DNA of 63,998 nt, counting the filler, from an uncultured bacterium (GTDB lineage: Bacteria; CAZSTA01): NCBI GenBank assembly GCA_964609495.1. It is 5 parts of 5 records of this genome, joined end to end, with 100 filler letters (N's around TTAATTAATTAA, not from the genome) between each part and the next. Parts side by side here need not be neighbours in the genome. Positions count along the whole stretch, not along the records: positions 1 to 15,039 come from CAZSTA010000080.1; 4 more parts are not named here. One strand, written 5' to 3'. Of this stretch, positions 1 through 60,534 are shown piece after piece. Position numbers and translations under genes: made by a program. The first letter of the stretch is position 1. Each line of letters begins with the position of its first letter. A model generated the notes under the pieces. That model was given only the letters and a program-made list of their open reading frames with translations. It made no database searches and was not told the origin of the DNA.

Positions 1-1
1 A

Positions 2-142
2 TTGCTGATCGATGTGTTAAGGGTTATGGAGGCTGAGAAATTCGCCTTTGAACTCACAGAACCTCTCAAGCCAGGAGTTATCAAAATCTTTGATGATGAA
101 AGTTATACCTGTGTAGTTATGCCAGTGAGGATCAGCAGTTAG
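2..142 (+). CDS. dnaN: DNA polymerase III beta clamp, C-terminal fragment (5' truncated by window)
   Basis: Manual translation LLIDVLRVMEAEKFAFELTEPLKPGVIKIFDDESYTCVVMPVRISS* matches the beta-clamp C-terminus (…Y.xVxMPxR). Confidence 0.85.
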   Translation: MLIDVLRVMEAEKFAFELTEPLKPGVIKIFDDESYTCVVMPVRISS

Positions 143-162
143 CTAGGTTTAGTTGATAATAG

Positions 163-193
163 AAAGGCAGATCTCGATCTGAGATCTGCCTTT
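163..193. terminator. Bidirectional intrinsic terminator between dnaN and lysS
   Basis: Perfect 13-bp stem AAAGGCAGATCTC-gatct-GAGATCTGCCTTT between convergent genes. Confidence 0.85.
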
Positions 194-216
194 AATTTCT
201 TTATCAGCTATTTCTC

Positions 217-1734
217 TCAATCCTCTTCCGAAATTTTCGGTGAATCTTCATCGCTTTCTGGCTTCATATGAGGAAATAGGATCACATCCCTTATCGATCT
301 CGAATTGGTGAAGAGCATAATTATCCTATCTATCCCCATTCCCAAACCGCCGGTGGGAGGCATTCCATACTCTAGCGCTCTGATGAAGTCTGCATCCATC
401 CTATGAGCTTCAACATCCCCAGTCTCCCGCTTCTTAACTTGTTCCCTGAAGCGTCTCTCTTGCTCTATCGGATCGTTTAACTCGGAAAAGGCATTACCTA
501 TCTCGAATTTGGCGATAAATGGTTCGAAACGTTGCACCAGGTTCGGATCGTCTTCCTTCTGCTTGGATAAGGGGGATAAGCCAGTAGGATAGTCGGTGAT
601 GAAGATGGGTTGAATTAGGTTGGGTTCAACTGTATGTTTAAATATATCATCCATAATCTTGTATATATCAAGATCGGGATCAACTTCGACTTGAAGCTTT
701 TTAGCTACCTCTAGCATCTCAGATTTATCTTTTATCTTAGAAATGTCTATCCCAGCATACTTTTCAACAGCCTCATAATAACTTAATCTCTCCCAGGGGG
801 CCGCAAGATCGATCTTCATTCCGAGATATTCGATAGAGGTGTCGCCTAAGATCTTTTCTGCCAAATGAGGAATCATAGTCTCGAATATCTCCATCATACT
901 CTCATAATTGCCATAAGCCTCATATAATTCGAGCATAGTAAATTCTGGATTATGACGCGTGGATATCCCCTCATTACGAAAGTTGCGATTTATTTCATAA
1001 ACCTTCTCGAAGCCACCTATGATCAGCCTCTTTAGGTATAATTCTGGGGCTACGCGTAGATATAGATCTATCCCCAGGGCGTTATGATGGGTTATAAAGG
1101 GACGAGCGGTAGCTCCTCCAGGGATTGGCTGCATCATAGGAGTCTCCACCTCTATAAATCCTCTAGCGTCAAGGAAGTCACGCATTCCCTTTATAATCTT
1201 ACTCCTAGTTAGGAAGGCTTCTCTTACGTTATCGTTTATGATCAGATCGACATAGCGGTGGCGATATCTTATCTCTGTATCCTTCAGTCCATGCCACTTC
1301 TCAGGAAGGGGACGTAAGGATTTGGTTAGGAGAACAAAGTCATTAATCCAAATGGTAACCTCACCCGCTCTTGTTTTGAAGAGCGTTCCTTCTACCCCTA
1401 TCCAGTCCCCGATATCAAGAGCTTTAAACAGCTCATATTTATCCTCACCAGCGGTGTTCACATTAGCATAGATCTGTATCTTTCCTGATATATCTTTTAT
1501 ATCGGCGAAACAGGCTTTACCATGACGGCGGATAGCCATAATGCGTCCAGCTACTTTCGCCTTTCGCCCTTCAACCTTCTCCCCCTTCTCGAGATAGGAG
1601 AACTCCTCCACCAGGTCCTTCGCAACATTGGTGCGATCGAACTTATCTCCAAAGGGAGCTATTCCCCTCTCTCGTAATTCCTGTAGCTTTTGCAATCTAA
1701 CTTGTCTTTCATCTAAATCCTTCCTAATCCCCAT
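217..1734 (-). CDS. lysS: Lysine--tRNA ligase (class II)
   Basis: OB fold; LPEKWHGL, FRNEG, HNPEFTMLE and YGMPPTGGLGMGIDR motifs. Confidence 0.98.
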   Translation of the reverse strand: MGIRKDLDERQVRLQKLQELRERGIAPFGDKFDRTNVAKDLVEEFSYLEKGEKVEGRKAKVAGRIMAIRRHGKACFADIKDISGKIQIYANVNTAGEDKYELFKALDIGDWIGVEGTLFKTRAGEVTIWINDFVLLTKSLRPLPEKWHGLKDTEIRYRHRYVDLIINDNVREAFLTRSKIIKGMRDFLDARGFIEVETPMMQPIPGGATARPFITHHNALGIDLYLRVAPELYLKRLIIGGFEKVYEINRNFRNEGISTRHNPEFTMLELYEAYGNYESMMEIFETMIPHLAEKILGDTSIEYLGMKIDLAAPWERLSYYEAVEKYAGIDISKIKDKSEMLEVAKKLQVEVDPDLDIYKIMDDIFKHTVEPNLIQPIFITDYPTGLSPLSKQKEDDPNLVQRFEPFIAKFEIGNAFSELNDPIEQERRFREQVKKRETGDVEAHRMDADFIRALEYGMPPTGGLGMGIDRIIMLFTNSRSIRDVILFPHMKPESDEDSPKISEED

Positions 1735-1764
1735 CTAAACCCCCTTTCCTGAAAGCAGAATACA

Positions 1765-2241
1765 TCAATATTCTATATCCACTATTTTATATCTTATAGT
1801 CCCATCCGGAACTTGAACTTCAATTGTATCTCCCTTTTTCTTATTCATAATGGCTTGTCCTACAGGAGATTCGTGGGATAACTTATTTTCCAAGGGATTA
1901 GCCTCTACTGGGCTTACAATTAGGTAGTGAGATTCAGATTCTCGCTCCATATCTCTTAGGACAACTCGAGAGCCAATGCCGATTGTTTCTCTATGGATAG
2001 TCTTGGGATCTATAATCTTAGCATCTTGCAATTTCTGCTCAAGGAATTTTATCCTATCCTCGATATAGGCTTGCCCCTTCTTAGCGCTGTCAAATTCGGG
2101 ATCATCGGTGATATCACCGATCTCCAGAGCCTTTTTTACCCTAATCGCAGCATTAACTCTCTCCACTGTCTTTAGATGCTCCAACTCCTTTCGTAGTTCT
2201 TCATATCCCTCAGGAGTTAAATAAACCTCCTCTGTATTCAT
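1765..2241 (-). CDS. greA: GreA/GreB-family transcription elongation factor
   Basis: LTPEGYEEL coiled coil, SHESPVGQA C-terminal motif, upstream of lysS; the tip motif is atypical (GDITDDPEF). Confidence 0.9.
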   Translation of the reverse strand: MNTEEVYLTPEGYEELRKELEHLKTVERVNAAIRVKKALEIGDITDDPEFDSAKKGQAYIEDRIKFLEQKLQDAKIIDPKTIHRETIGIGSRVVLRDMERESESHYLIVSPVEANPLENKLSHESPVGQAIMNKKKGDTIEVQVPDGTIRYKIVDIEY

Positions 2242-2289
2242 GTAGTATCACTCCTTTTCCTCATCAGCTCTCTTCCTAGATCCGTAATT

Positions 2290-2424
2290 AATTAGAAAAA
2301 ACACCGCAACATTATAAAAAAAGAGACTCCTACCATATAGAGTCAAATAACCTGTCTTACCTTCTTGCGGTGTTTTTAAGACAGATATTATCTAAGTTCG
2401 AATCTATAAAAGACTCTTATCCAT
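2290..2424 (-). promoter_or_regulatory. Structured greA-lysS 5' leader with terminator-like hairpin (putative attenuator)
   Basis: Minus strand has the hairpin CTGTCTTA…TAAGACAG, GACTC…GAGTC followed by a U-run, and the long-range pair AAAAACACCGCAA/TTGCGGTGTTTTT followed by U. Confidence 0.55.
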
Positions 2425-2429
2425 CATCA

Positions 2430-2458
2430 ATTATACACTATTTAAACATATTTGTCAA
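2430..2458 (-). promoter_or_regulatory. Sigma70-type promoter for greA-lysS
   Basis: TTGACA-17-TATAAT on the minus strand. Confidence 0.85.
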
Positions 2459-2611
2459 GATACTAGAAGGAAAAACTTGGGATTTTGATATAAGAAAGAT
2501 ATTAAGTAGCTCCAAATAGATTAAATTATTATTCTCATATATTCCTCTGATCGCTAAAAATGGGCTCTCCAGCATATTTTTAAAATTTTCGAAAAAAAGT
2601 TTAAAAAGGTA

Positions 2612-2640
2612 TTGACTTTTTTTGCTAAAGGGTGTATAAT
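2612..2640 (+). promoter_or_regulatory. Sigma70-type promoter upstream of the structured RNA and ABC operon
   Basis: TTGACT-17-TATAAT with AT-rich UP region. Confidence 0.8.
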
Positions 2641-2646
2641 CTAATG

Positions 2647-3031
2647 CGCCAATAAATTAGAGAAATTAGGCGATATATTAAACGGAAAGGGAGAAGCTAA
2701 GAGAGTAATGGATAGGGATATATTTGCACCTCGTAAAGGGGTAGGGTATTCTCCAAGACATAGGGGGGATTCCGCGCTCTTTGTTAAGAGTATCCATCTG
2801 CTCTATTATCAATCTCAGGCTCTCTTGGTGTCTCAAATTCCGTTCCTTGACAGTATAGATTTCGTTTCCCAGATGGGGAATAACTGTCTCTGCCACCCGT
2901 CGTTGGTCGAAAGTCCAGGTTGATTTTCCGCCATGGGCGGTTGAGACGATCGTCCATGGCTTGTATGTGAATTTAATATATATTAAGATTAGCCATGAGT
3001 CGGTCAAGTCTGACTTATGGCTAATTTTTTT
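2647..3031 (+). ncRNA. Unassigned multi-domain structured RNA or long leader
   Basis: Nested helices (2673-2682/2972-2981, 2681-2687/2838-2844, 2696-2705/2820-2829, 2708-2714/2791-2797, 2849-2854/2883-2888, 2898-2901/2945-2948) plus several hairpins, bounded by a promoter and a terminator. Confidence 0.6.
2988..3031 (+). terminator. Intrinsic terminator upstream of the ABC ATPase gene
   Basis: ATTAGCCATGAGTC-loop-GACTTATGGCTAAT followed by a T-run. Confidence 0.85.
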
Positions 3032-3059
3032 GTGTTATGGTTATAAGTGGAGGTGAATT

Positions 3060-3965
3060 ATGAAAATCGAACTAATCGAGGGTGAGAGGAATACAAAATC
3101 TGAGGAGGTAGTTTGTATGTCTGAAAAAGCCCTGATTTGCGATAATGTTTGCAAGTATTTCGTCGAGAAGAGGCAAGATGACAAAAGGAGCTTTAGGGAA
3201 AAGCTTGGACAAATCTTTCGTAGCGAAAAGAAAAAGGTAAAGGCTGTTCACAAGATCAATTTTCAGATGGGAAAAGGAGAGGTGTTTGGCATCATTGGAC
3301 CGAATGGATCGGGAAAATCCACCTTAGTCCGTTTGATCTCTACCCTTCTAATTCTTGATGAGGGAGAAATAAAGATCTTTGGGCTTGATGTGGAGAAGGA
3401 TCGTTTCGAGGTTAGAAAGATGATAAATAGAGTATCGGTTGATGCCGCCTTCTTCAAGAAGTTATCTCCCCTCGAGAATCTGCGTTATGCGGCTCGCCTC
3501 TACGGAGTTCCAGTTAAGGAGGCTCAACAGAGAGCTATGGATATACTGGTTCGCCTGGGGCTTGAGGAAAAGCGTCTGAATATCTCTCTGGAGGGAATGT
3601 CCAGAGGGATGCAGCAAAAGGTAGCTATCGCTAGAGCTTTGCTCACCTCCCCGATCTTGTTGCTTCTCGATGAGCCAACCACCGGGCTCGATCCTAAGTC
3701 CAAGCGCTCTGTGCAGGGGTTCATCACTGAGATAAGAGATACCCATAATGCTACGGTCTTGCTGACAACTCACGATATGAATGAGGCGGAGCGTCTATGT
3801 GACCGAATCGCTATCTTGGATCGAGGAAGGTTCATAGCTATGGGAACTTTAGATGAGCTTAGGGCTAAAGCTAGCGAAGATGGAAATGACCATAGCGATA
3901 TGAGCTTGGAGGATATATTCTTCGAATTAACTGGCAAGGGATGGGAAGGGGATGAGGAAGAGTGA
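3060..3965 (+). CDS. ABC-2 exporter ATP-binding protein (alternative in-frame start at 3117)
   Basis: Walker A GPNGSGKS, signature MSRGMQQ, Walker B LLLLDEPT. Confidence 0.95.
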   Translation: MKIELIEGERNTKSEEVVCMSEKALICDNVCKYFVEKRQDDKRSFREKLGQIFRSEKKKVKAVHKINFQMGKGEVFGIIGPNGSGKSTLVRLISTLLILDEGEIKIFGLDVEKDRFEVRKMINRVSVDAAFFKKLSPLENLRYAARLYGVPVKEAQQRAMDILVRLGLEEKRLNISLEGMSRGMQQKVAIARALLTSPILLLLDEPTTGLDPKSKRSVQGFITEIRDTHNATVLLTTHDMNEAERLCDRIAILDRGRFIAMGTLDELRAKASEDGNDHSDMSLEDIFFELTGKGWEGDEEE

Positions 3966-4762
3966 TAAATAACGCTACTCGAGAATTAAAAGCCACCTAC
4001 GCCTTCGTGGAAAGAAATTTCACTTTGGTAAAGAGGTATCTTGGTTGGGATATCGTATTTATGTTCTATACGGTGATCAACACCTTGACCATCGGGTTGA
4101 TCGGAGCGAGTCAAGGAAAAGATGCAGTGCTCTTCCTGGTGGTGGGAGCTATGCTTTGGGGTTTCCTCTCGTTCCTCTTCCACGAGGTCAGCGAATCAGT
4201 GTCTTGGGAGCGATGGGAGGGAACGATCGAATACACCTTTATGGCGCCCATCCATCGCTTCACTCACTTAGGAGGAATGTGCATCTACGCGATAATCTAT
4301 GGGATCATTCGCTCCATAATCCTTATGATTGCGATAACTATCTTCTTTGATCTCAGCTTAGAAAATGCTAATTTGTGGGGAGCTTTAATTGTCCTTGTGA
4401 TCTCCAGTCTCTCCTTTATTGGGATGGGATTGATGGCAGCGGTTCTACCGCTGATGTCCCCAGAGAGAGGATCGCAAGCTACTCATATCTTCCAAGCATT
4501 AGTTCTCTTAGTATCAGGGGTATATTATGATATTAAATATCTACCGACTTGGCTTCAGCCTTTCTCCTACATCTCCCCAGCGACCTACACTCTAAGAGCG
4601 ATTCGGAAGGCTCTACTTCAAGGAGCACCATTGAATACCTTAACTTCGGATATCGCTATCTTGCTGATGATAGGTATCGTTCTGATTCCTCTGGGGCTTG
4701 TGGTCTTCAATTGGGGGGAGAGATATGCAATGAAGGTCGGCAAGCTAAAGAGAAGTGGATGA
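3962..4762 (+). CDS. ABC-2 type permease
   Basis: About 6 hydrophobic segments, WERWEGTIEY motif, follows the ATPase. Confidence 0.92.
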   Translation: MINNATRELKATYAFVERNFTLVKRYLGWDIVFMFYTVINTLTIGLIGASQGKDAVLFLVVGAMLWGFLSFLFHEVSESVSWERWEGTIEYTFMAPIHRFTHLGGMCIYAIIYGIIRSIILMIAITIFFDLSLENANLWGALIVLVISSLSFIGMGLMAAVLPLMSPERGSQATHIFQALVLLVSGVYYDIKYLPTWLQPFSYISPATYTLRAIRKALLQGAPLNTLTSDIAILLMIGIVLIPLGLVVFNWGERYAMKVGKLKRSG

Positions 4763-5576
4763 GGAGGTGGTAGCAGCGATGTTAGATTCGTTTCGAGAGT
4801 TAAAATCCACTTATGCCTTTGTCGAGAGAAACTTTGCCCTTGTCCGCAGATATTTCTGGTGGGAGATGGTTTTCCTCGTCTATTCGATGGTCAATATCTT
4901 AACTATAGGTCTGATCGGAGTTAGCCAAGGAGGGGAGAAGGTCCTCTTCCTAATCGTAGGAGCGCTATCGTGGGGCTTTTTCTCCGTTCTCTCCTTCGAG
5001 GTTGCTGGATCGGTAGCGTGGGAACGCTGGGAGGGAACGATCGAATACACCTTTATGGCGCCTATTCACCGGACCACTTATCTACTGGGGATGTGCTTCT
5101 TCGCTATAACTTATGGTCTCCTTCGCGTAGTGGTTATGATGATTCCAGTGAGCATTTTCTTCAATTTAAATTTAGGCAATGCTAATCTAGGGGCCGCATT
5201 CGTTATTATGGTTCTCTCCAGTCTCTCCTTCATCGGGATAGGATTGATGGCGGCGGTTCTACCTCTGATGTCTCCGGAGAGGGGTGAGCAGGCAACCGAG
5301 GTCTTTCATGCTGTTATCTTTCTCATCTCAGGGGTATATTACGATATTAGCTATCTTCCTAAGTGGCTACAACCTCTTTCTCATATCTCCCCAGCAACTT
5401 ACAGTTTACGGGCGATGAGGAAAGCATTATTAGAGAATGCTCCCTTGAGTTCTCTCACTACCGAGGTGTGGATACTTCTGTTAACAGGTCTCATCTTGAT
5501 CCCTTTGGGATTCGTGATCTTCAGTTGGGGAGAGAGATACGCGATGAAGGTAGGAAAGTTGAAGAGAAGCGGATAG
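4755..5576 (+). CDS. ABC-2 type permease (tandem paralog; likely start 4779)
   Basis: Highly similar to the preceding permease, with identical C-terminus WGERYAMKVGKLKRSG. Confidence 0.92.
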   Translation: MDEEVVAAMLDSFRELKSTYAFVERNFALVRRYFWWEMVFLVYSMVNILTIGLIGVSQGGEKVLFLIVGALSWGFFSVLSFEVAGSVAWERWEGTIEYTFMAPIHRTTYLLGMCFFAITYGLLRVVVMMIPVSIFFNLNLGNANLGAAFVIMVLSSLSFIGIGLMAAVLPLMSPERGEQATEVFHAVIFLISGVYYDISYLPKWLQPLSHISPATYSLRAMRKALLENAPLSSLTTEVWILLLTGLILIPLGFVIFSWGERYAMKVGKLKRSG

Positions 5577-5706
5577 ACTTCTTATAGACTTACCTTTAGT
5601 GACGCATTAAATAAGGAAAGGAATATGTGCTACTTGAGATTTACATAATAATGGATTTTGAATAAAACAAGGTATTTTAACGCAAATAAAAGAGGAGTTG
5701 TAAATA

Positions 5707-6441
5707 ATGAATGAAATAGGAAAAGTATTTATGGAAAGGACAAAACACCAGTATCTGGGTATGTCAGATCAGATGAAAGGCTTGGAACAGCCACCTTTAG
5801 AGTTGGGATATGATAAGACAAAGAGAGTTATTGATTTGCCAGATCCTAAAGAGATTAGATTAGGTGATATTAGCTTGAGGGAAGCTATCGAGAAACGGAG
5901 AAGTATACGCGAACACTCACAGAGACCTTTAACTATAGAGGAATTATCATATTTGCTCTGGTGCACACAGGGTGTAAAGGAAGTTATTCCCCATCGTGCG
6001 ACATTTAGAACTGTTCCGTCTGCCGGTGCTCGACATTCCTTTGAAACCGATCTCTTGGTTAATAACGTTGAGGAGTTACAAAGTGGTGTTTATAGATTTT
6101 TAGCTATTGAACATAAACTTATTGAAGTAAACATAGATCCTGATATAGCTGACAAGATAACTAGAGCTTGTTTTGGGCAGGGATTTGTGAGAACAAGTGC
6201 TGTAACTTTTATCTGGGTGGCGGTAGCGCATAGAATGAATTGGCGCTATGGAGAGAGAGGATATAGATATATGCACTTGGACGCAGGACACGTTTGTCAA
6301 AATCTATATCTGAGTGCGGAGGAGATCGATAGCGGGGTTTGTGCTATTGCCGCTTTCTCGGATGACGATATGAACCGATTACTCGATCTTGATGGAGAGA
6401 ATCAGTTTGTAATATATATTGCAACCGTGGGTAAGAAGTGA
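5707..6441 (+). CDS. SagB/ThcOx-family nitroreductase-like dehydrogenase
   Basis: RRSIR, RTVPSAGA, YGERGYRY, LDAGH motifs. Confidence 0.9.
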   Translation: MNEIGKVFMERTKHQYLGMSDQMKGLEQPPLELGYDKTKRVIDLPDPKEIRLGDISLREAIEKRRSIREHSQRPLTIEELSYLLWCTQGVKEVIPHRATFRTVPSAGARHSFETDLLVNNVEELQSGVYRFLAIEHKLIEVNIDPDIADKITRACFGQGFVRTSAVTFIWVAVAHRMNWRYGERGYRYMHLDAGHVCQNLYLSAEEIDSGVCAIAAFSDDDMNRLLDLDGENQFVIYIATVGKK

Positions 6442-6515
6442 AAGAGCCCAACATTCGTATAACTACGGAGTATTAACATCGAACAAAGATTTTTATGCGC
6501 CACTTGAGTGTTAAA

Positions 6516-6556
6516 TAAAAAGAACCGTCGTTTCCTTTGAGGAAAGCGGCGGTTTC
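6516..6556. terminator. Terminator hairpin between convergent genes
   Basis: AACCGTCGTTTCCT-ttg-AGGAAAGCGGCGGTT with an A-run on the left. Confidence 0.7.
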
Positions 6557-6615
6557 ATAGATTAGGAGATACTAAGGAGAAGCTTCTTGAGAAGGGATAA
6601 CAAGTTTAATTGAGA

Positions 6616-6843
6616 TCAGTTAGGAAAGAGAGAACACTTATTCTCTCGATTAGCTTTGGCTATCTTCCATCCCAACTGAATCATAACCTTTCCTAAAGCA
6701 AAGCGTATCCTCGATAATACTTCCGCTAGGTTTGAAGGTGCATTTATTTCCTTTAATATCCTTTCCTCATCAGCCTCACGTAAAAGTTGCTGATATCTAT
6801 CCTTTCCACCTTGTTCAACTAAGTAATAATCGTTAGGATTCAT
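6616..6843 (-). CDS. Small hypothetical protein
   Basis: 75 aa with good RBS (AGGAGG), own extended -10 promoter and terminator. Confidence 0.7.
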   Translation of the reverse strand: MNPNDYYLVEQGGKDRYQQLLREADEERILKEINAPSNLAEVLSRIRFALGKVMIQLGWKIAKANRENKCSLFPN

Positions 6844-6897
6844 ATTCTGATCCTCCTTCTCATCTGATCAAGATGTCGCTTTTGAACTTCCATATAT

Positions 6898-6934
6898 ATT
6901 ATACCACAAGTTACTGACAACATTATGTCAGTAA
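6898..6934 (-). promoter_or_regulatory. Extended -10 (TGGTATAAT) with upstream palindromic operator
   Basis: TTACTGACA-acatta-TGTCAGTAA perfect 9-bp inverted repeat at 6911-6934. Confidence 0.65.
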
Positions 6935-7116
6935 TTTTTTAAAAAATCGAACATTTTTCCGATTTTTATCGGCTTAAATGTCATCGCTTTCAGAAAATTT
7001 AGGTTTTTGTAATGCTCTTTGCAATCAGAATATCTACCTCTAGGAAGCAGAAACTGTTGCTATTTCGTAGTAGATATGATATAATTATCAACAAAAGGTA
7101 AAAAGGGGCGATAAGA

Positions 7117-8172
7117 ATGAGTGAGGATAAGGCGGATAATAATCTAAAGATGAGCTCAGCATTAACTCGTCGAGATTTCCTAAGACTATCGCTTTTGGCA
7201 GGAGCGGTTTTAGCTGTTGATATAAACATAGCTTGTGCCGAAGCGAGCGATAATATAGGTGAGGAAAAGATGACTGAAGTTTTTATGATAAAGACTCAGG
7301 ATAGGGAAAAAGGGACAGCAGAACTTCTGAAGCACTTCGATCTAAGTAGCTTTGCCGGTAAAAGCGTAGCGTTAAAGCCGAACTATAATAGCGCTGATGA
7401 TTTTCCTGCCTCCACCCATATAGATTCTCTGCGTGCTTTTATCAGAGGTCTAAAGGGGGCTGGTGTTGATAAGATAACTCTGCCTGAGCGTAGTGGAATG
7501 GGAGTTACCCGATCAGTTCTGGAGAATCGCGGGGTGATGGCTCTCTCGAAGGAACTTGGCTTCGAGGTAATAGTGTTAGATGAGCTTGGAGAGGAAAGGT
7601 GGATCAAGTTCACTCCTGAGGGATCACATTGGAGGAGAGGTTTCTTATTGGCGAAGCCCTTCCAAGAGGCGGATAAGGTCGTCCAACTCTGTTGCTTGAA
7701 GACTCACCGCTATGGAGGCCATTTCACTATGTCCCTGAAGAATTCTGTAGGAGCGGTGGCTAAATATGATCCCACCGATAGCTATAACTATATGAACGAA
7801 CTGCATAGCTCCCGTTATCAGAGATATATGATAGCCGAGATAAATCAGGCTTATAATCCTGAGATCATAGTTATGGATGGGATAAAGGCGTTTGTCACCG
7901 GTGGGCCAGCGAGCGGTAGGGAGGTCGAGCCGGGGGTTATTATAGCCGGAAATGATCGCGTAGCTGTAGATGCGGTTGGTGTTGCTATTCTTCGCCACTT
8001 CGGTACTACCCCTGAAGTATCAAGGGGAAAGATATTCGAGCAGGAACAGATAGCCAGAGCTGTTGAGTTGGGGATCGGAGTGAAATCCGCTAAAAATATA
8101 AAGCTTGTTACAATTGGAGAAGAAACTCAGGATTTCGCTAAGAGGATAGAGGATGTATTGAAACAAGGATAA
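7117..8172 (+). CDS. DUF362-family protein with twin-arginine signal
   Basis: TRRDFL + hydrophobic segment; VALKPN, LKTH, SLKN, DRVAVDAVG motifs. Confidence 0.85.
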   Translation: MSEDKADNNLKMSSALTRRDFLRLSLLAGAVLAVDINIACAEASDNIGEEKMTEVFMIKTQDREKGTAELLKHFDLSSFAGKSVALKPNYNSADDFPASTHIDSLRAFIRGLKGAGVDKITLPERSGMGVTRSVLENRGVMALSKELGFEVIVLDELGEERWIKFTPEGSHWRRGFLLAKPFQEADKVVQLCCLKTHRYGGHFTMSLKNSVGAVAKYDPTDSYNYMNELHSSRYQRYMIAEINQAYNPEIIVMDGIKAFVTGGPASGREVEPGVIIAGNDRVAVDAVGVAILRHFGTTPEVSRGKIFEQEQIARAVELGIGVKSAKNIKLVTIGEETQDFAKRIEDVLKQG

Positions 8173-9558
8173 GTGGAGGTGGATTATTTGTTCTTCAGGA
8201 GATTCTTCATTAGAGGATTAGCGCACACATCATATATGATCGGTTCTCAGGGGGAATGTGCGGTAGTAGATCCGAGGCGAGATGTGGATTTCTACTTGAA
8301 AATAGCGGAGAAGGAGGGGCTAAAGATAACTCATATTCTCGAGACCCATTTACATGCCGATTTCATATCAGGGCATTTAGAATTGGCGGATATAACAGGA
8401 GCTAAGATATATATATCTCAGAAAGCTCAAGCTGAATACGATCATATTGGGCTGAAAGAGAATGATAGGATAGAAATTGGGGATGTGAGGATCAATGTCT
8501 TAGAGACGCCCGGACATACTCCAGAGCATATATCTCTGTTAGTTAGCGATGACTCTGATAAGCCTGAGCTAGTATTCACTGGAGATACTCTTTTCGTGGG
8601 AGATGTGGGGAGACCGGATCTATTTGGAGAGGATAAAGCTTCGGAATTGGCGGGGAAATTATACGATAGCCTTCATAATAAATTGATGAGATTGGAGGAT
8701 CATATCCAGGTCTATCCCGCTCATGGCGCAGTTTCTCTCTGTAGTCTTAAAATTGAGAGGGAGAAGTCTTCTACTATTGGGCATGAGCGGCGGTTCAATT
8801 ATGCTATACAGGAGAAGGATAGGAAGAAGTTCACCAAGCTGATATTAGAAGGAATGCTCGAAGCTCCTGTTTATTTTAGTAGGAGCAGGGAAATAAATCG
8901 CAAGGGTCCTGAGATTTTGAGGGAATTTCCAGGTAAGAGATCAATATCTCCTCAAGAGGCATATGATTTACTTCAGGATAAAGCGATACTTCTTGATATT
9001 CGTTCATCTAGAGAATTCTCCGAGCTTCATGCCGAAGGAGCGATCAGTATCGGTTTCAGCCCCTGTTTATCGACTTGGTCGGGATGGATCACTCCTTACG
9101 ATAAACCTATTATATTAATGATTAAAGATGAAGGCTGGTTAGAGCCGACGGTCCGTCGTTTGATAAGGGTAGGACATGATGATATATCGGGCTATGTTGA
9201 GGGAGGGATCGAAGCTTGGCAAGAGGCAGGATTACCCACTCAAACATTGACTTATATATCTGCTCAAGAGCTGAAACAGAAGCTAGATGATAAGGGAGAG
9301 CCAGTGGTCTTAGATGTTAGAACCAAGGCGGAATGGGATGCTGGACATATACCAGGAGCTTTTCATATTCCCCTGGGATATATTCCCGAACGTTACTCTG
9401 AGACAAATGGGAATGAAGAACTCGCGGTTATGTGCGACGTTGGATATCGTTCCACCATAGCTTCGAGCATACTCCAGCGCAACAACTTCGGCGATATTTA
9501 CAACATAAAAGGTGGAATAAACGCTTGGAAGAAAGCGGGTTATGAGACTGTTATGTGA
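8173..9558 (+). CDS. MBL-fold hydrolase with two rhodanese domains (persulfide dioxygenase/sulfurtransferase-like)
   Basis: THLHADF, TPGHTPEH, FTGDTLF; rhodanese DVR…GHIPGA and CDVGYRS. Confidence 0.9.
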   Translation: MEVDYLFFRRFFIRGLAHTSYMIGSQGECAVVDPRRDVDFYLKIAEKEGLKITHILETHLHADFISGHLELADITGAKIYISQKAQAEYDHIGLKENDRIEIGDVRINVLETPGHTPEHISLLVSDDSDKPELVFTGDTLFVGDVGRPDLFGEDKASELAGKLYDSLHNKLMRLEDHIQVYPAHGAVSLCSLKIEREKSSTIGHERRFNYAIQEKDRKKFTKLILEGMLEAPVYFSRSREINRKGPEILREFPGKRSISPQEAYDLLQDKAILLDIRSSREFSELHAEGAISIGFSPCLSTWSGWITPYDKPIILMIKDEGWLEPTVRRLIRVGHDDISGYVEGGIEAWQEAGLPTQTLTYISAQELKQKLDDKGEPVVLDVRTKAEWDAGHIPGAFHIPLGYIPERYSETNGNEELAVMCDVGYRSTIASSILQRNNFGDIYNIKGGINAWKKAGYETVM

Positions 9559-9637
9559 TGGGATGTTTGGACACCCAAGCATATCCAGATATATAGAAGA
9601 GGGATATGAAGTTGTAGTTTTTTAACAATGAAGAGAG

Positions 9638-10042
9638 GTGATAGATATGAAAGAAATGAAGGATTTGTTTCAAAGTGCGGACTGGAAGAAGGAAAAGCAC
9701 GTGCCTGTAATAGAGTTGCCTGAAAAGGCTAAAAAAGACGAGTCCTTGAGGATAACCGTGAGCGTTGGAAAGGAGATCCCCCATCCTAATACCACTGAAC
9801 ACCATATAGGATGGATAGAGGTCTACTTCTTGCCTGAAGGAGAAAAGTTCCCTTACCTCATAGGGAGATCTGAGTTCTCGGCTCACGGAGCATCTGTCCA
9901 GGGAGCAAACTCCAGTTCGGTTTACACTGAACCCGAGATGGTTTGTACACTGAAGACAGGCAAGTCGGGCACAGTCAACGTCGTGTCTTACTGCAATATC
10001 CACGGCTTATGGACCAGTTCCGCAGAGTTGAAAGTGGAGTAA
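9638..10042 (+). CDS. Superoxide reductase (neelaredoxin, class II SOR)
   Basis: EKHVP, HPNTTEHHIGW, CNIHGLW iron ligands. Confidence 0.92.
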   Translation: MIDMKEMKDLFQSADWKKEKHVPVIELPEKAKKDESLRITVSVGKEIPHPNTTEHHIGWIEVYFLPEGEKFPYLIGRSEFSAHGASVQGANSSSVYTEPEMVCTLKTGKSGTVNVVSYCNIHGLWTSSAELKVE

Positions 10043-10093
10043 ATAGAGAGGAAATGGTTGGATCATAACTAAAAGAGGATGGAAATATAAGGC

Positions 10094-10144
10094 AGAAATT
10101 GGAAGACGTTAAGCGATTGTGCTTGTTTTCGTCTTCCAATTTCT
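10094..10144 (+). terminator. Hairpin after the SOR gene
   Basis: AGAAATTGGAAGACG…CGTCTTCCAATTTCT 15-bp inverted repeat. Confidence 0.6.
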
Positions 10145-10160
10145 ATCTTATATTGCAATT

Positions 10161-10213
10161 ACCAAAAAATGTTGACAAATTTAATATTTTTTGGTATAAT
10201 ATATATAGGGGTA
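10161..10213 (+). promoter_or_regulatory. copA promoter with overlapping inverted repeat
   Basis: TTGACA(10172)-17-TATAAT(10195); ACCAAAAAAT…ATTTTTTGGT inverted repeat; downstream TATAGGGGTA resembles a CsoR half-site. Confidence 0.7.
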
Positions 10214-10274
10214 AATTAGTCAAGTTTAGATGAGAAAGATCTAGCAAGAATAGAAAGAATTATCGATTAAGAAG

Positions 10275-12707
10275 GTGATGCAGATGGCAGATCGAAGGAC
10301 AGAGGAGAAAAATATTATTAAGAGAAAATTAAAGATTGAAGGTATGAGTTGCGCTAACTGTGCCCAGACTATAGAGAAGGCTGTGGGAAGATTGGAGGGA
10401 GTGACTTCAGCCTCGGTCAACCTTGTCTCGGAGCTATTATATGTGGAGTCCGATCCTTCTGTAGAGGAGAAGGAGATAATAGAGAGGGTGGAAGACGCGG
10501 GCTATTCGGTGAAACTCTCTCCTTCAAAGAGGATCAGATTCGATGTGGAAGGGATGAGCTGTGCTAATTGCGCTCAGACTATAGAGAAGAAGCTAAATAG
10601 AACTGAGGGGATAAAAAAAGCTATAGTTAATCTGTCGAGTGAAAAGGCTACTGTAGAGTTCGATCCCGAGGTTATCACCAAAGGGCAGATATTCGCGATA
10701 ATAGATGATCTGGGATATGGAGCTAGTGAGGAGACCGAGAGGGAGGAGGAGGCGGAGGAAAAGAAGATCTCCGAAGCAGAAAGGCAGAGGGATTGGCTGA
10801 TATTCAGCGCTCTTCTCACGCTCCCTATCTTGATCCTGATGTACACAAATATCTTAGGTGCTTATACGAAATATGTAAACTTTGTCCTAGCCACGGTCGT
10901 CCAGTTCACCGCTGGGTTGATCTATTACAAAGGGGCATATCATTCTTTGAAGAATGGTTCGGCTAATATGGATGTCCTCGTCGCTTTGGGAACTTCCGCC
11001 GCTTACTTCTGGAGCGTTATGGCAACCTTCTTTATAAAGGGCGAGATATTCTTCGAGACCTCGGCTATGCTCATCACTTTCATTCGCTTTGGGAAATTTT
11101 TGGAGGCTAGAGCGAAAGGGCAAGCTAATACCGCTTTAAGGGCGCTTCTGAAGTTGCAAGCTGATAAAGCGAGATTAGCTTATGATGATGGTCATACTGA
11201 GGAAGTCCCCGCCTCTCAGATAGAGGTTGGCGAGGTGGTATTAGTCAAGCCTGGTGAGAAGATCCCGGTAGATGGGGAGGTTATAGATGGAGGATCGAGC
11301 GTTGACGAATCGATGGTAACTGGAGAATCGGTCCCTGTCGATAAGGAGGTAGGCGATGAGGTTACTGGCGCTACTATAAACAAGAGCGGAGTTCTGAAGA
11401 TCAGAGCTACTAAGGTGGGTAAGGATACGGTGTTATCACAGATCGTCGAGATGGTGCAGGAAGCTCAAGCGGATAAGGCTCCTATCCAGCGTTTAGCCGA
11501 TACAATATCTAATTACTTCGTCCCCACAGTAGTGGCTATCTCGATCATAACTTTCCTGATTTGGTACTTCATCGCTAGACAACCCTTTATTTTCTCCTTC
11601 AGTTTAGCGATAGCGGTTCTAGTTATCGCTTGCCCCTGTGCTTTAGGATTAGCCACCCCTACTGCGATTATGGTGGGAAGTGGAATAGGCTTGGGAAATG
11701 GCATCCTCTTCAAGAAAGCCTCGGTCTTGGAGAACATCTCTAAGCTAGATGTATTGATCTTGGATAAGACGGGAACGATAACTAAGGGAGAGTTTCAAGT
11801 TACCGATCTAGTTCCTTTAAATTCTATATCTGAAAGAGAGCTACTAAGCTACACGGCGACAGGTGAGAGTTCCTCCAGTCATCCTATAGCTGGCGCAATA
11901 ATTCAAAAGGCGAATGATGAGGGAGTGAGGATAGGAGAGGTGGAGGAATTCGATGAGAAGCGAGGTCACGGAATAAGCTGTAAATATCAGGATAAACCTC
12001 TATTGATAGGTAGAAAGAAGCTATTAGAGGATGCGAATATATCGATGGATGGAGTTCAAGGTAAGGTTCAGCAACTGTCCGAACAAGGGAAGACCGTTAT
12101 CTACGTAGCTTATGATAATGAACTCGTTGGGTTAGTAGCCTTAGCAGATGTTATCAAGGAAGGCTCCAAAGAGGCTATAAGGCAATTTAAGGAGCTGGGG
12201 ATCAAGATAATTATGATCACTGGCGATAACAGACGTGTTGCCGAGGCAGTGGCTAAGGAAGTGGGGATCGATGAAGTAGAAGCGGAAGTTCTTCCCGAGG
12301 ATAAACAAGTTACCATCAAGAAGTATCAATCTCAAGGTTCGAGAGTGGGAATGATTGGAGATGGGATAAATGATGCTCCTGCTTTAGCTCAAGCTGATAT
12401 TGGAATAGCTATCGGTTCGGGAACGGATGTTGCCAAAGAGACGGGAGATGTTGTCCTAGTTAAGAACGATCTACTTGATGCAGAAAGAGCTATACGCTTG
12501 GGAAGAAAGACATTAAACAAAGTCAAGCAGAATCTATTCTGGGCTTTCTTCTACAACACGATAGGCATCCCGATAGCGGCTGGTATTCTCTATCCCATCT
12601 TTGGTATAACCCTCAAGCCAGAATACGCGGGCTTAGCAATGGCTCTATCATCCGTCTCAGTGGTAACCAATTCCCTGCTTCTGAAGAGATATGAACGCGA
12701 GCTATAA
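10275..12707 (+). CDS. copA: Copper-translocating P1B-type ATPase
   Basis: Two GMSCANC HMA domains, [24 protein letters not shown] and MALSS motifs. Confidence 0.96.
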
Positions 12708-12729
12708 TTCAGTCAGGAGGAGATCGATT

Positions 12730-13053
12730 ATGAAGGGATTAAGGGAAGTTACTGATGAGACTTTTGACGATATGGTCTTGAAAGCGGATAAACCGCTACT
12801 TCTGGAGTTCATGTCTCCCACTTGTCGCTCTTGCAAAGCTATAGCAGGTCGCTTAGAAGAATTAGCGGAGGAGTTTCAAGGCAAGGCGGAATTTCTGCAA
12901 TTGAGCATCGCTGATAATATGAGATGGGAAGATTACGATATAAGAAATACCCCCACCCTACTATATTTTGCGAATGGAGAAGAGATGGAGAGGCAAGATT
13001 TCTTCCCTAGTAGAGAGGAGATAAAGGAGCAACTTAATAAGCTCACTAGTTAG
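12730..13053 (+). CDS. Thioredoxin-family protein
   Basis: CRSC CxxC motif and cis-Pro TPT; RBS AGGAGG before ATG 12730. Confidence 0.85.
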   Translation: MKGLREVTDETFDDMVLKADKPLLLEFMSPTCRSCKAIAGRLEELAEEFQGKAEFLQLSIADNMRWEDYDIRNTPTLLYFANGEEMERQDFFPSREEIKEQLNKLTS

Positions 13054-13106
13054 CTCCTCTTTCTTCAGGAGAAAATGGTTTATCTTTGAAAAATAAAATA
13101 TATTTT

Positions 13107-13143
13107 ATGGCGTCGGGTTTAATAGTCCGACGCTATTTTATTA
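13107..13143 (+). terminator. Intrinsic terminator
   Basis: ATGGCGTCGG…CCGACGCTAT followed by TTTATT. Confidence 0.65.
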
Positions 13144-13176
13144 TCAATCCCCAATATTTGCTAATCTTGAAGATGA

Positions 13177-13205
13177 TTGACAATTATTTAGTATTATGCT
13201 ATAAT
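13177..13205 (+). promoter_or_regulatory. Sigma70-type promoter of the methyltransferase
   Basis: TTGACA-17-TATAAT with TG. Confidence 0.8.
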
Positions 13206-13245
13206 AAACTGCAGAAAACAGGGTAAAGTTTCCGATGGTGGTAAA

Positions 13246-14910
13246 GTGATAATTCCAGAGAGCAGAGTAATGAGTTACAAACAACTGACTCTTTTCGATC
13301 ACACTACTAGAAAGTCTAGTTTTGGTGGGCTAAGGCAGAGGGAAAAGCATTTCGAACGCCCTGAGAAAGTTTATGGCCAATTCTTAACCCCTCCCGAGGT
13401 TGCGGATTTTATAGTGCGTTTCCTCGTTGCAAACACGGAAGGGAATCTTGGAATCGACCCAGCTTGCGGGGATGGTGTTTTCCTTGAGGCACTTATCGAG
13501 GCTGGATTTGAAGATGTTGTCGGGATAGATATCGATCCTAAAATTCTCGATAATTTGCCATTAGAGGTGGAAAGCAAGGCAAGAATCATCCTGGGTAATG
13601 GTCTCACCTCCTTTGCTTCCCTAGAGGGCTTAGGAACTGCTGTAGTAGGTAATCCACCATTCAGCGCTAAATATGGAAGGGTGAGTGACAAAGCGATACT
13701 TTCCAAGTTTGAATTGGGTAAAGGGAGGAGTAGTCAAGCGATAGAAGTTCTTTTCCTCGAGAGATTCCTACAATTCGCATCGTCGAAGGGAGTCATTGGC
13801 ATTATCGAACCTCAAGGGATTTTCTCTGCCTTACCTATGGAATATGTCAGAGCTTATATAACTAATAAAGCTACTGTTCTGGGAGTTATATCTTTGCCAA
13901 GAGGCATTTTCAGTAATGGCACTACCTCAAAGACATGCATTCTCCTTGCTCGAAAGGGAAAGAAAAAAGTGAAGACTTTTATGGGCATCGCAGAACATCT
14001 CGGTGATCTCCCAATACTCCTAGAAGCCTATATCGAGCATCAAGAACTTGAATATCCACCCTCCTTTTGGGTTAACCTAAGATCTGATACCTTCGAACCT
14101 GAATTCTACTGGTCCTCCAAGACTATTCAGCCGCTTTTCAAACCAGAGTTACCAGTTGTACCTTTAGGCGAACTTCTATCTGAAATGCGCTGCGGCGGAA
14201 CCGAGTATGGTGAAAAAAGGAAATTTGTGAACGAGGGTATCCGCTTTATCTCGGCAAAGACTATCACTCCTCTTGGCATAGACTTTAGTCGGGACGAAAA
14301 ATATGTAGAGCCAAATAGTCCTATGGACAAAAAAGGGGCTTATGTCTTTCGTGGCGATGTCTTATTCGTTCGGGTAGGTGTTGGATGTAGTGGGCGGGCG
14401 GCTGCTTTAGTTGACGATCTGCAAACAGGGATCGCTGATGATTGGATATACATTCTACGACCTAAGACGATATCTCCTTTTTATCTCGCTCTATTCTTCT
14501 ATACCAAGCCTGGTTCGATGCAAGTTGATCGCCTAAAGCGGGGCGTTGGAACAGTAAATATTCCTCAAAAACTGCTGAAACGTGTCTTGGTTCCAATTCC
14601 CCCAGAGTCCTTTCAGCAGTATGTAGAGATAGGATATCAAGAGATGGTAAAGCTCCGGGCGGCAGGATATATAAGCGAAGCACAAGAAAAATTTGCGCAA
14701 ATGAAAGCTAGCATCGAAACTATGGTAACTCAACTTCCTATAACTTCTGTCTCTCCCAGCCTTGTGGGAAAAACGGCACAGCCAAAACAGATTGTAGAGT
14801 GGGAACCATCGATGCCGATACTTTTCGATACGATTAGAGCATTTTCGATCGCATCTGAGAAGCATCATGAAGATATGATTGATGTCTTAAAGCGGATTCT
14901 TGGGATATAG
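13246..14910 (+). CDS. N6-adenine DNA methyltransferase fused to an HsdS-like target recognition domain
   Basis: GQFLTP, DPACGDG, NPPF (gamma class); C-terminal GDVLFVRVG…GRAA…NIPQKLLKRVLVPIPP TRD-like region. Confidence 0.85.
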   Translation: MIIPESRVMSYKQLTLFDHTTRKSSFGGLRQREKHFERPEKVYGQFLTPPEVADFIVRFLVANTEGNLGIDPACGDGVFLEALIEAGFEDVVGIDIDPKILDNLPLEVESKARIILGNGLTSFASLEGLGTAVVGNPPFSAKYGRVSDKAILSKFELGKGRSSQAIEVLFLERFLQFASSKGVIGIIEPQGIFSALPMEYVRAYITNKATVLGVISLPRGIFSNGTTSKTCILLARKGKKKVKTFMGIAEHLGDLPILLEAYIEHQELEYPPSFWVNLRSDTFEPEFYWSSKTIQPLFKPELPVVPLGELLSEMRCGGTEYGEKRKFVNEGIRFISAKTITPLGIDFSRDEKYVEPNSPMDKKGAYVFRGDVLFVRVGVGCSGRAAALVDDLQTGIADDWIYILRPKTISPFYLALFFYTKPGSMQVDRLKRGVGTVNIPQKLLKRVLVPIPPESFQQYVEIGYQEMVKLRAAGYISEAQEKFAQMKASIETMVTQLPITSVSPSLVGKTAQPKQIVEWEPSMPILFDTIRAFSIASEKHHEDMIDVLKRILGI

Positions 14911-14987
14911 CCAACTGTGTGGGAAGACTGATATTAAAGGGAGAGGAGATATTACGTCTTCTCTCCCAATCTATTAAAGGAGGTATT

Positions 14988-15039
14988 ATGGAGCTCCCTG
15001 TAACCTTTCAAAATGAAGGACAGCAGATAGTAGGGATGT
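14988..15039 (+). CDS. N-terminal fragment, probably an alpha/beta hydrolase (cut by contig end)
   Basis: RBS AAGGAGG then MELPVTFQNEGQQIVGM. Confidence 0.45.
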
Positions 15040-32654: not shown

Positions 32655-32900
32655 GTCAACAACCCCTACTGATTTTCAATCAGTAGGGGCTTGCGAGAGC
32701 AAGCCCTGGTTGACTAGGAGGCACTGGTATGGTGCAGAAGTTAGCAAAGAGAAATCACATACACACCTTAGAATACTCCTCTCGTTCTAAGCTCTGTGGT
32801 TTGTCATTAAACAGTTCTGAGGGTAGGGACAGTGTGGCAGACTTAAAAACCTTTGCTAACAACTCCGAAGAGGCGTTCGGTGGAGGAACACTTTATATTA
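32655..32900 (+). ncRNA. HEARO / omegaRNA scaffold
   Basis: GTCAAC…GTTGACTAG closing stem, GTTAGCAAAG/CTTTGCTAAC, CACACCTTAGAATACTCCTCTCGTTCTAAGCTCTGTG, TTAAACAG, CCGAAGAGG pseudoknot partner of CCTCTCG. Confidence 0.8.
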
Positions 32901-41612: not shown

Positions 41613-41703
41613 TGAAATTAAGAGTTTACATAATTTCTAGCGGAATTTTATTAGAAATTCTCCAGACTTGGGTATAATGTAAGTAGATAACTAAATATCC
41701 ACA

Positions 41704-41784
41704 TTATGTGGAGGCGATGATTCTATAGTCTGTATTTGGGCACTTGGACTATAGGCTAGCCAATAGTGAAACCAGCCACTATAT
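41704..41784 (+). ncRNA. Cyclic-di-GMP-II riboswitch aptamer
   Basis: GGAGGCGATGA-CTATAGTC-TGTATTTGGGCACTT-GGACTATAG-..AGCCAATAGTGAAACCAGCC; CACT/AGTG pseudoknot; P1 GTGG/CCAC. Confidence 0.85.
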
Positions 41785-41802
41785 TCGTGGGTGGTATTTT
41801 TA
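41771..41802 (+). terminator. Riboswitch expression-platform terminator
   Basis: ACCAGCCAC-tatattc-GTGGGTGGT-ATTTTTT overlapping the P1 3' strand. Confidence 0.65.
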
Positions 41803-45100: not shown

Positions 45101-45142
45101 TGACCTACACTGCTTACTTCTACAAGGAGGGAGGAGGAACAG
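42139..45142 (+). CDS. Secreted S8 (subtilisin-like) peptidase with Ig-like domain and C-terminal tandem repeats, 3' truncated
   Basis: Catalytic triad VIDSG, GHGTH, GTSMAAP; SAGN oxyanion; TWYFGQGY repeats. Confidence 0.93.
44386..45142 (+). repeat. 318-bp (106-aa) near-identical intragenic tandem repeats
   Basis: Units start at 44386, 44704 and 45022 (third cut by gap). Confidence 0.9.
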
Positions 45143-45242
45143 NNNNNNNNNNNNNNNNNNNNNNNNNNNNNNNNNNNNNNNNNNNNTTAATTAATTAANN
45201 NNNNNNNNNNNNNNNNNNNNNNNNNNNNNNNNNNNNNNNNNN
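45143..45242. other. Artificial contig junction
   Basis: N spacer with TTAATTAATTAA. Confidence 0.99.
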
Positions 45243-49451: not shown

Positions 49452-49527
49452 TGGCTGGGGCGGGAGGGCTCGAACCTCCAAATGACGGATCCAAAGTCCG
49501 TTGCGTTACCGATTTCGCCACGCCCCA
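49452..49527 (-). tRNA. tRNA-Gln(UUG)
   Basis: TGGGGCG acceptor, anticodon arm ACGGA-CTTTGGA-TCCGT, GGTTCGAG T-loop, encoded CCA. Confidence 0.97.
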
Positions 49528-60025: not shown

Positions 60026-60125
60026 NNNNNNNNNNNNNNNNNNNNNNNNNNNNNNNNNNNNNNNNNNNNTTAATTAATTAANNNNNNNNNNNNNNNNNNN
60101 NNNNNNNNNNNNNNNNNNNNNNNNN
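60026..60125. other. Artificial contig junction
   Basis: N spacer with TTAATTAATTAA. Confidence 0.99.
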
Positions 60126-60230
60126 CTCCCTAGCGAAAAGCTACTTAAAATCTGCTAGCACAAACTTTTACATGCTTACTCAATAGAAGGAAGCATATAA
60201 AATCTGGGCTCTAATTTGCTTTGCATTACA

Positions 60231-60322
60231 CCCTCCCATCGAGAGAGGGGGGAACTAAAGAGAGCAAGCTTATCCCAACGTTCCTCCTCCCCTCGTGGGA
60301 GAGGGCTAGGGTGAGGGGGAAT
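60231..60322. repeat. REP-like repeat, copy 2
   Basis: CCCTCCCATC…TCCCCTCGTGGGAGAGGGCTAGGGTGAGGGGG. Confidence 0.75.
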
Positions 60323-60376
60323 TATAATTCGATCTGAAATCATTTTGATCTCCGATTCTATATGTATCCTCAATAG

Positions 60377-60515
60377 AAAGGAGGTGAAAGAGAGCAATTC
60401 CTCCCCTTAAAGGAAACTTTTGCGGACAATAAAACTCAAGTGTTCTGGTAACTTTTGCAGACAAAAAATATATAAGGTTAAAAAGTTACCGGAATTAAGA
60501 GGTTTTCCTTACGCT
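60377..60515 (+). mobile_element. Remnant IS200/IS605-type end related to the 32655 element
   Basis: 24-bp identity TTCCTCCCCTTAAAGGAAACTTTT with 32939-32962, preceded by AAGGAGG…GCAA. Confidence 0.5.
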
Positions 60516-60534
60516 AAAGTGGGGAGGGGTCTCC

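Follow-up and report, generated by a model that had tools for sequence, protein, structure and literature searches.

We analysed a window of 63,998 nt (filler included) from an uncultured bacterium (GTDB lineage Bacteria; CAZSTA01; NCBI GenBank assembly GCA_964609495.1), composed of five parts from five records of this genome, and focused on an RNA unit at 2647-3031 in its first part (CAZSTA010000080.1, positions 1 to 15,039), directly upstream of an operon for an ABC-2 type exporter. This unit is a real, strand-specific, strongly structured transcript-like entity with a promoter and a terminator. We tentatively favour its interpretation as a lineage-restricted, highly structured 5′ leader of ~385 nt that acts as a transcription attenuator of the ABC-2 exporter operon. 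The initial annotation, made from the sequence alone, had described a new large non-coding RNA or a riboswitch/attenuator controlling the exporter; no Rfam family matched, a new RNA is plausible but unproven, and the riboswitch part is a guess.

The unit lies within an 818-nt gap between greA (1765-2241, minus strand) and the ABC ATPase gene (from 3060), from which two divergent promoters are directed outward. The sigma-70-type promoter facing the RNA (TTGACT-17-TATAAT, 2612-2640, plus strand) agrees with the consensus at 11 of 12 positions, as recognized before, and its spacing predicts a transcript start at ~2647. At the other end, a terminator scan detected a plus-strand intrinsic terminator consisting of a 19-pair stem (6 G-C; 2985-3028), a 6-nt loop and a T run that reaches to 3031. 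The terminator had been reported with 14 bp, which correspond to the uninterrupted core of the longer stem. Three terminator-like sites were found in the region compared with 0.6 expected from shuffled sequences. Just 29 nt separate the end of the terminator from the ATPase start codon, and a consensus scan, which cannot exclude such a site, listed no promoter-like site on the plus strand after 2809, this spacer included. The proposed link to the exporter is therefore plausible at this locus. A GGAGGTG ribosome-binding site and the first ATG (3060) of the ATPase gene follow at 3047-3062, and the operon (3060-5576, plus strand), consisting of the ATPase gene and the genes of two ABC-2 permeases, presumably comprises the regulated genes.

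The folding stability of this region is exceptional within the window. The 396-nt stretch of the RNA reached a minimum free energy (MFE) of −143.8 kcal/mol, compared with −105.5 ± 5.3 kcal/mol in dinucleotide shuffles (z −7.18), and none of 100 shuffles folded as well. When the 5′ hairpin and the terminator were left out, the remaining core (2673-2981) still had a z of −4.34. We then ranked 964 windows of 396 nt from both strands of the whole stretch, among which the RNA came first, 3.6 standard deviations below the trend after correction for G+C content and ahead of the window containing a HEARO RNA. The reverse complement folded with −91.4 kcal/mol only (z −1.82), and G-U pairs make up 19 of the 124 MFE pairs. 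This strand asymmetry argues against an intact or decayed DNA palindrome and is as expected from selection on the plus-strand RNA.

The complementary segments named in the initial annotation are all present on the plus strand, some of them offset by 1 nt. In the MFE structure of 2647-3031, the RNA begins with a hairpin (2647-2672) in which CGCC/GGCG closes an A/U-rich loop. Next follows the 5′ arm of a basal helix, which is also part of the MFE structure and is formed by ATATATTAAA (2673-2682) and TTTAATATAT (2972-2981), complementary at 10 of 10 positions; its 3′ arm belongs to an A/T palindrome (2973-2986). The first domain is a long rod of 165 nt (2681-2845), purine-rich on one side and pyrimidine-rich on the other, with a branched tip, as delineated by the MFE structure together with an inverted-repeat search. 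Its lower part has arms of 25 nt (2681-2705 and 2820-2844) that are 76% complementary and include AACGGAA/TTCCGTT and GCTAAGAGAG/CTCTCTTGGT. The rod as described before is thus present, but its inner part is uncertain because two folds compete there. One contains the helix ATGGATA/TATCCAT (2708-2714 and 2791-2797), found by the inverted-repeat search, and the other pairs GGGTATTCT (2744-2752) with 2787-2795. As a consequence, TATCC (2791-2795) may have either GGATA (2710-2714) or GGGTA (2744-2748) as partner, of which the first belongs to the helix of the initial annotation and is backed by one compensatory change among strains, and the second belongs to the MFE structure and is compatible with the variants G2746A and C2794T.

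The second domain is a hairpin (2849-2888) with GACAGT/ACTGTC (2849-2854 and 2883-2888) and TTCCC/GGGAA (2866-2870 and 2876-2880), in agreement with the earlier description; the variants at 2865, 2875 and 2879 suit the 5-bp register given there better than the 7-bp register of the MFE structure. The segments of the third domain, GCCA/TGGC (2892-2895 and 2957-2960), CGTC/GACG (2898-2901 and 2945-2948) and CCGCC/GGCGG (2928-2932 and 2936-2940), were likewise found, but the four-way fold that combines them yielded −15.4 kcal/mol (−19.7 kcal/mol after optimisation) versus −31.0 kcal/mol for three serial hairpins, and is hence less stable by 11-16 kcal/mol. Two of these hairpins are small (2892-2895/2904-2907 and 2909-2915/2922-2928, from the local MFE structure). 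The third one, in the following called hairpin A (2930-2960), has 14 bp, including 8 G-C pairs, and a pair probability of 0.996 in the local ensemble.

A candidate antiterminator strand is located in the 3′ arm of this hairpin. CATGGCT (2955-2961) is complementary at 7 of 7 positions to AGCCATG (2991-2997) in the 5′ arm of the terminator, as had been pointed out, which suggests an antiterminating function. At the level of the sequence, 2955-2961 can pair either with 2930-2936 within hairpin A or with 2991-2997, and the two pairings are mutually exclusive. Perfect 7-mer complements, such as this one and ATGGATA/TATCCAT, are expected by chance ~5 times per 400 nt.

On this basis, the following mechanism can be proposed. 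Transcription would initiate at ~2647, and the RNA would fold into the 5′ hairpin, the A/U basal helix, the 165-nt rod, the hairpin domain and the three further hairpins before the strong intrinsic terminator ends most transcripts at ~3031. The exporter operon would then be transcribed only through read-through of the terminator, and how much read-through occurs would depend on two partners competing for the 3′ arm of hairpin A (2947-2960). If this arm is kept in hairpin A, the terminator may form; if CATGGCT instead pairs with the 5′ arm of the terminator, the latter would be blocked. The large upstream fold may sense a small molecule, a protein, another RNA or temperature and thereby shift the balance. 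The terminated leader may in addition accumulate as a stable RNA.

To evaluate this structure by natural variation, we used near-identical DNA that is listed for 20 runs (18 studies) labelled as marsh, soil, subsurface and sediment metagenomes, none of them an RNA run. Over positions 2400-3200, contigs of the four coded runs X2, X7, X12 and X13 were 93-100% identical. Those of X12, X2 and X13 bridge the junction between the terminator and the ABC operon, showing that the locus is not an assembly artefact, and that of X7 stops shortly after the terminator, at 3045. Within 2647-3031, we counted 25 variable sites and one deletion of 1 nt. Mapped on the MFE fold, nine of these sites keep the pairing, eight break a pair and eight are unpaired. 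On a hybrid fold in which two helices of the initial annotation were enforced (−133.8 kcal/mol), nine keep the pairing, six break a pair and ten are unpaired; the nine include one compensatory pair, G2711A together with C2794T on a single contig of run X13, which restores ATGGATA/TATCCAT. Looking at the individual elements, one strain variant in the 5′ hairpin breaks the pair at 2648 and keeps the one at 2649, T2950C retains a pair in hairpin A (G-U to G-C), and in the terminator G3008A falls into the loop and T3026C retains its pair. The 5′ arm of the basal helix (2673-2682) showed no variation among strains and is hence uninformative. The four natural haplotypes had folding energies of −141.6, −142.5, −135.6 and −147.5 kcal/mol compared with −141.7 kcal/mol for the reference, and random substitutions of the same types averaged −136.8, −139.1, −133.2 and −138.5 kcal/mol for the respective haplotypes. 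That the variants retain the folding energy is a trend, not proof.

Several results weigh against a selected attenuator leader. The variable sites follow no pattern, with 32% of them unpaired compared with 36% of all positions, and the variant test was not significant, as the fractions of random sets that folded as well were 0.17, 0.20, 0.33 and 0.05, with changes shared between the haplotypes. The RNA diverges at about the rate of the flanking non-coding DNA. In run X12, one contig (199 nt) is identical to the window over the first 34 nt of the ABC region (3050-3083), but upstream of them it has a different sequence that ends in a T run; some related genome therefore possesses another leader or terminator here, and the leader is not fixed in all relatives. 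The antiterminator is weak, as its 7 bp would have to compete with the 14 bp of hairpin A and the 19 pairs of the terminator. The RNA was found in none of 124 related loci, which comprise 80 ABC-2 and 44 GreA loci, and it had no match in phages and plasmids. A blastn search of 401 genomes yielded matches of 22-47 nt in five genomes, none of which extends, and the two inspected were coding sequence. Finally, a covariance model built from 2847-2964 with 36 pairs, which finds only itself in the window, had no match in sets of 34 and 151 genomes.

Another explanation would be a non-functional or very young sequence that happens to fold well and to carry a terminator, with no selection on the large fold; it could stem from an insertion in decay or from inverted repeats that expanded locally. 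This explanation would account for the occurrence in near-identical strains only (93-100%), for the divergence similar to that of the flanking non-coding DNA, for variable sites that favour neither unpaired positions nor pair-keeping changes, for the contig with another upstream context, and for the 9-nt direct repeats ATATATTAA that flank the core at 2673 and 2978. Should the fold have no function, it would caution that even a very strong folding score is not by itself proof of function. We nevertheless consider this explanation quite unlikely, because the folding asymmetry of −143.8 versus −91.4 kcal/mol is not expected of decayed DNA palindromes, the z of −7.18 is retained in part by the core alone (−4.34), and a near-consensus promoter is aimed at the RNA. 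In addition, neither terminal inverted repeats around the RNA nor a repeat copy of it were seen in the 64-kb window.

The searches for relatives covered two sets of loci in detail. The 80 genome loci with relatives of the first permease (at most 72% identity, from many phyla) were searched by blastn, nhmmer and a covariance model, and none carried the RNA. Collecting homologues upstream of this ABC-2 family, as suggested with the initial annotation, was hence without result, and the RNA is not a general feature of the family. The RNA was also absent from the 44 metagenome loci with GreA relatives, which reached at most 52-53% identity. Two pattern scans of viral contigs returned 1 and 18 matches without extended similarity, which we attribute to chance. 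To place the organism, we compared its LysS protein and found that it is 48-58% identical to LysS of 15 genomes to which the loci led, and at most 62% identical in the 401 genomes, a sample of the phylum of genome G011, whose locus is titled Clostridia. There was no closer LysS in the order (four genomes) or class (34 genomes) of the best genome. These low identities indicate that the organism is a deep branch without close relative within reach. As these searches gave no sign of conservation outside one species-level population, we treat both "new RNA class" and "riboswitch" as hypotheses.

The absence from all 80 related ABC-2 loci, which indicates that the RNA is not tied to this transporter family, bears on another explanation. 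The RNA could be the product of a stand-alone gene for a small to medium-sized RNA that acts in trans or binds a protein, with a constitutive terminator and an incidental position before the operon. In that case, expression of the operon would rely on leaky read-through or on a promoter invisible to the scan. The strong promoter and very strong terminator are consistent with this, as are the closing of the entire fold by a basal helix, a trait of many stable RNAs, and a folding energy more extreme than anywhere else in the window, the HEARO RNA window included. On the other hand, there is no promoter-like site for the operon, the terminator lies within 29 nt of its start codon, and the 64-kb window contains neither a second copy nor a target-like complement. 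Moreover, no homologues were found, whereas widespread housekeeping RNAs usually have them. Taken together, a stand-alone RNA gene appears possible but somewhat unlikely.

We also considered the open reading frames (ORFs) within the RNA. An ORF of 71 codons extends from 2708 to 2923 on the plus strand, and the initial annotation had pointed to the possibility that it encodes a conserved protein. We found no homologue of it, its changes look neutral and its codon usage is not gene-like; it is probably not a protein gene. Pfam assigned no family to this ORF or to a minus-strand ORF of 109 codons (2678-3007), which gains a stop codon in one variant. A search against 5.8 billion protein clusters returned the plus-strand ORF itself as the sole match, and a full HMMER pass over 1.84 billion representatives added one marginal match (E 4e-4) to 26 residues of a 958-amino-acid protein. 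Among its 15 variable sites, five changes are synonymous and ten non-synonymous, and its codon score of 0.011 is below the 5th percentile (0.113) of the genes in the window. Its Shine-Dalgarno match is weak and its start codon lies within a predicted helix. The ORF is open in all five variant fragments, and its last nine codons (2896-2923) contain only one change, which is synonymous.

The position of the stop codon (2921-2923), 7 nt before hairpin A, suggests how translation of this ORF could control the operon. A ribosome at or near the stop codon would melt the 5′ arm of hairpin A and free CATGGCT for pairing with the terminator arm, leading to read-through. The geometry of stop codon, hairpin A, 7-bp alternative pairing and terminator fits such a translation-coupled attenuator, and so do the intact reading frame and its nearly invariant end. 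In addition, a small conserved ORF precedes the terminator in the closest related operons, with a peptide pattern shared by four of the five leader-bearing loci, and a published analogue exists in bmrB-bmrCD of Bacillus subtilis (PMC4191407). However, the weak ribosome-binding site, the start codon in a helix, the neutral-looking changes, the low codon score and the lack of homologues save the marginal one all speak against this explanation. With 71 codons the ORF is long for a leader peptide, heavy structure covers it, and the peptide pattern of the related operons was not found in the window. Coupling to translation is therefore quite unlikely in our view.

In B. subtilis, the bmrCD leader is reported to contain an ORF with alternative stem-loops and to require translation (PMC4191407). 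That system resembles the present one in that a leader with an ORF, alternative stem-loops and an intrinsic terminator precedes the operon of an ABC exporter. It differs in that the transporter here is of the ABC-2 type with separate permeases, the ORF has 71 codons, a weak ribosome-binding site and no conservation, and the terminator is located after the ORF rather than within it.

Leaders also precede the five closest related operons, which come from metagenome-assembled genomes titled Zixibacteria, Gemmatimonadota or "bacterium". In all five, a TTGACA promoter is followed by a conserved leader of ~170 nt, an intrinsic terminator and the ATPase gene (L004:4996-5160; L008:1410-1574; L002:3724-3881; L001:2735-2897; L009:4890-5048). 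This leader, which had no match in Rfam, contains a conserved small ORF with a conserved C-terminal motif in four of the five loci and third-position changes that look synonymous, and the two ends of the ORF are brought together by a 14-bp helix in three of the five loci. It looks like an undescribed leader-peptide attenuator in its own right. The place, the operon family and the arrangement of promoter, leader, terminator and ATPase gene are shared with the RNA in the window, but the related leaders are shorter and possess the conserved ORF. An nhmmer profile of them recovered all five members (E 1e-52 to 4e-29), but its best hit in the window, at E 64, was an unrelated site, and their peptide pattern occurred in four loci and not in the window. 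The boxes GAGTATCCAT and TTAGCCAT are shared with the related leader; given their different order and nesting and the negative profile search, we took them as chance similarities. As the same operon family is preceded by unrelated leaders and terminators, attenuation-type control appears to recur in this transporter family.

To compare the RNA with known families, we searched Rfam 15 (4227 families). At the gathering thresholds, there were three matches in the window, a HEARO RNA, a tRNA and a c-di-GMP-II riboswitch, and none within 2647-3031. When we allowed E-values up to 10 over 2400-3200, eight matches were obtained, all far below gathering and mostly of microRNA models to the terminator hairpin; the best was a plant microRNA model there with 30.1 versus 102 bits. 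No match to T-box, RNase P, SRP, 6S, tmRNA, OLE, ROOL, GOLLD, raiA, HEARO or known riboswitches was detected for the RNA. ARAGORN predicted no tmRNA or tRNA gene at this site, its only gene in the window being tRNA-Gln (49452-49527). Both searches thus agree with the earlier view that hallmarks of tmRNA, RNase P, SRP, T-box, 6S and the common riboswitches are lacking. The segments GAAAGUCC (2909-2916) and GGCUU (2958-2962) resemble the P4 strands of RNase P; they were dismissed, as they lie only ~35 nt apart and no RNase P model matched even at E 10. The T-box model likewise had no match at E 10, and neither the conserved T-box sequence nor the UGGN bulge was seen in the candidate antiterminator. 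Inspection by eye revealed nothing convincing for a CsrA sponge, a G-quadruplex or a tetraloop-receptor. No published description of such an RNA was found in a full-text search limited in terms and library and excluding the supplementary motif lists of discovery papers.

Two of the Rfam matches elsewhere in the window deserve mention. The HEARO RNA (32655-32880; 127 bits versus a gathering threshold of 83) is a guide-like RNA of IscB-type elements. The c-di-GMP-II riboswitch (41701-41786; 57 versus 53.5 bits) is located upstream of a gene for a subtilase-family protein of 1019 amino acids (42139-45198). An intergenic region at 60030-60540 contains N, and a window next to it (60193, plus strand) proved comparatively stable in the MFE scan.

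Regarding its general organization, the RNA resembles riboswitch leaders of the terminator/antiterminator type and attenuator leaders in having a promoter, a structured leader and a terminator before an operon together with a mutually exclusive pairing. It differs from them in the lack of any match to an Rfam riboswitch or leader model, of a conserved aptamer and of a ligand, and in an antiterminator of only 7 bp. To our knowledge, its folded part of ~300 nt is larger than any known single aptamer. With T-box leaders it presumably shares a long rod-like first domain followed by a choice between terminator and antiterminator, but the downstream genes here encode an exporter and are not amino-acid genes. 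A long intricate non-coding fold with its own transcription signals is also typical for OLE, ROOL, GOLLD and the raiA motif, from which the RNA in the window differs by the absence of Rfam model matches and of covarying homologues. Such large orphan RNA classes are reported to be defined by hundreds to thousands of covarying homologues (PMC12286853, PMC12968392). HEARO, found elsewhere in the window, is a further class of this kind.

Beyond the RNA, the locus has further features. An alternative start codon of the ATPase gene (ATG 3117, plus strand) lies behind a second strong ribosome-binding site, GAGGAGG (3102-3108), and the alignments with ATPase homologues begin at residue 9-24 in the closest loci and further into the protein elsewhere. 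An ORF of eight codons (3037-3063) overlaps the first ATG. A gene for a SagB-family dehydrogenase with nitroreductase fold (5707-6441) is located 3′ of the ABC-2 operon; it was not beside the ATPase gene in the first 40 related loci checked and is thus probably outside the conserved unit. On the other side, the promoter scan assigned a perfect TTGACA-17-TATAAT promoter (2458-2430, minus strand) to greA-lysS. The resulting greA leader of ~190 nt (2242-2458, minus strand) has a folding z of only −1.35; within a longer 13-bp helix, it harbours a hairpin (2344-2325) that, with its T run, resembles a terminator. This hairpin is reminiscent of the premature termination in the greA leader of E. coli.

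A structured leader with a terminator choice is a known kind of system, of which the candidate described here would be at most a variant, set apart by its size and the absence of relatives. It is unlikely, in our estimation, that it represents the first member of a new class of leaders of very large size (~300 nt) that sense a ligand or factor, gate an ABC-2 exporter through terminator read-through and are confined to a deep-branching, uncultivated Bacillota-like lineage of marshes and sediments barely sampled by public genomes. If the fold is functional, it would constitute an unusually large and ornate regulatory leader without known relatives, and finding its signal could reveal what the exporter handles. 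In different lineages, a single ABC-2 operon family would then have come to use at least two leaders of the attenuator type that are unrelated to each other.

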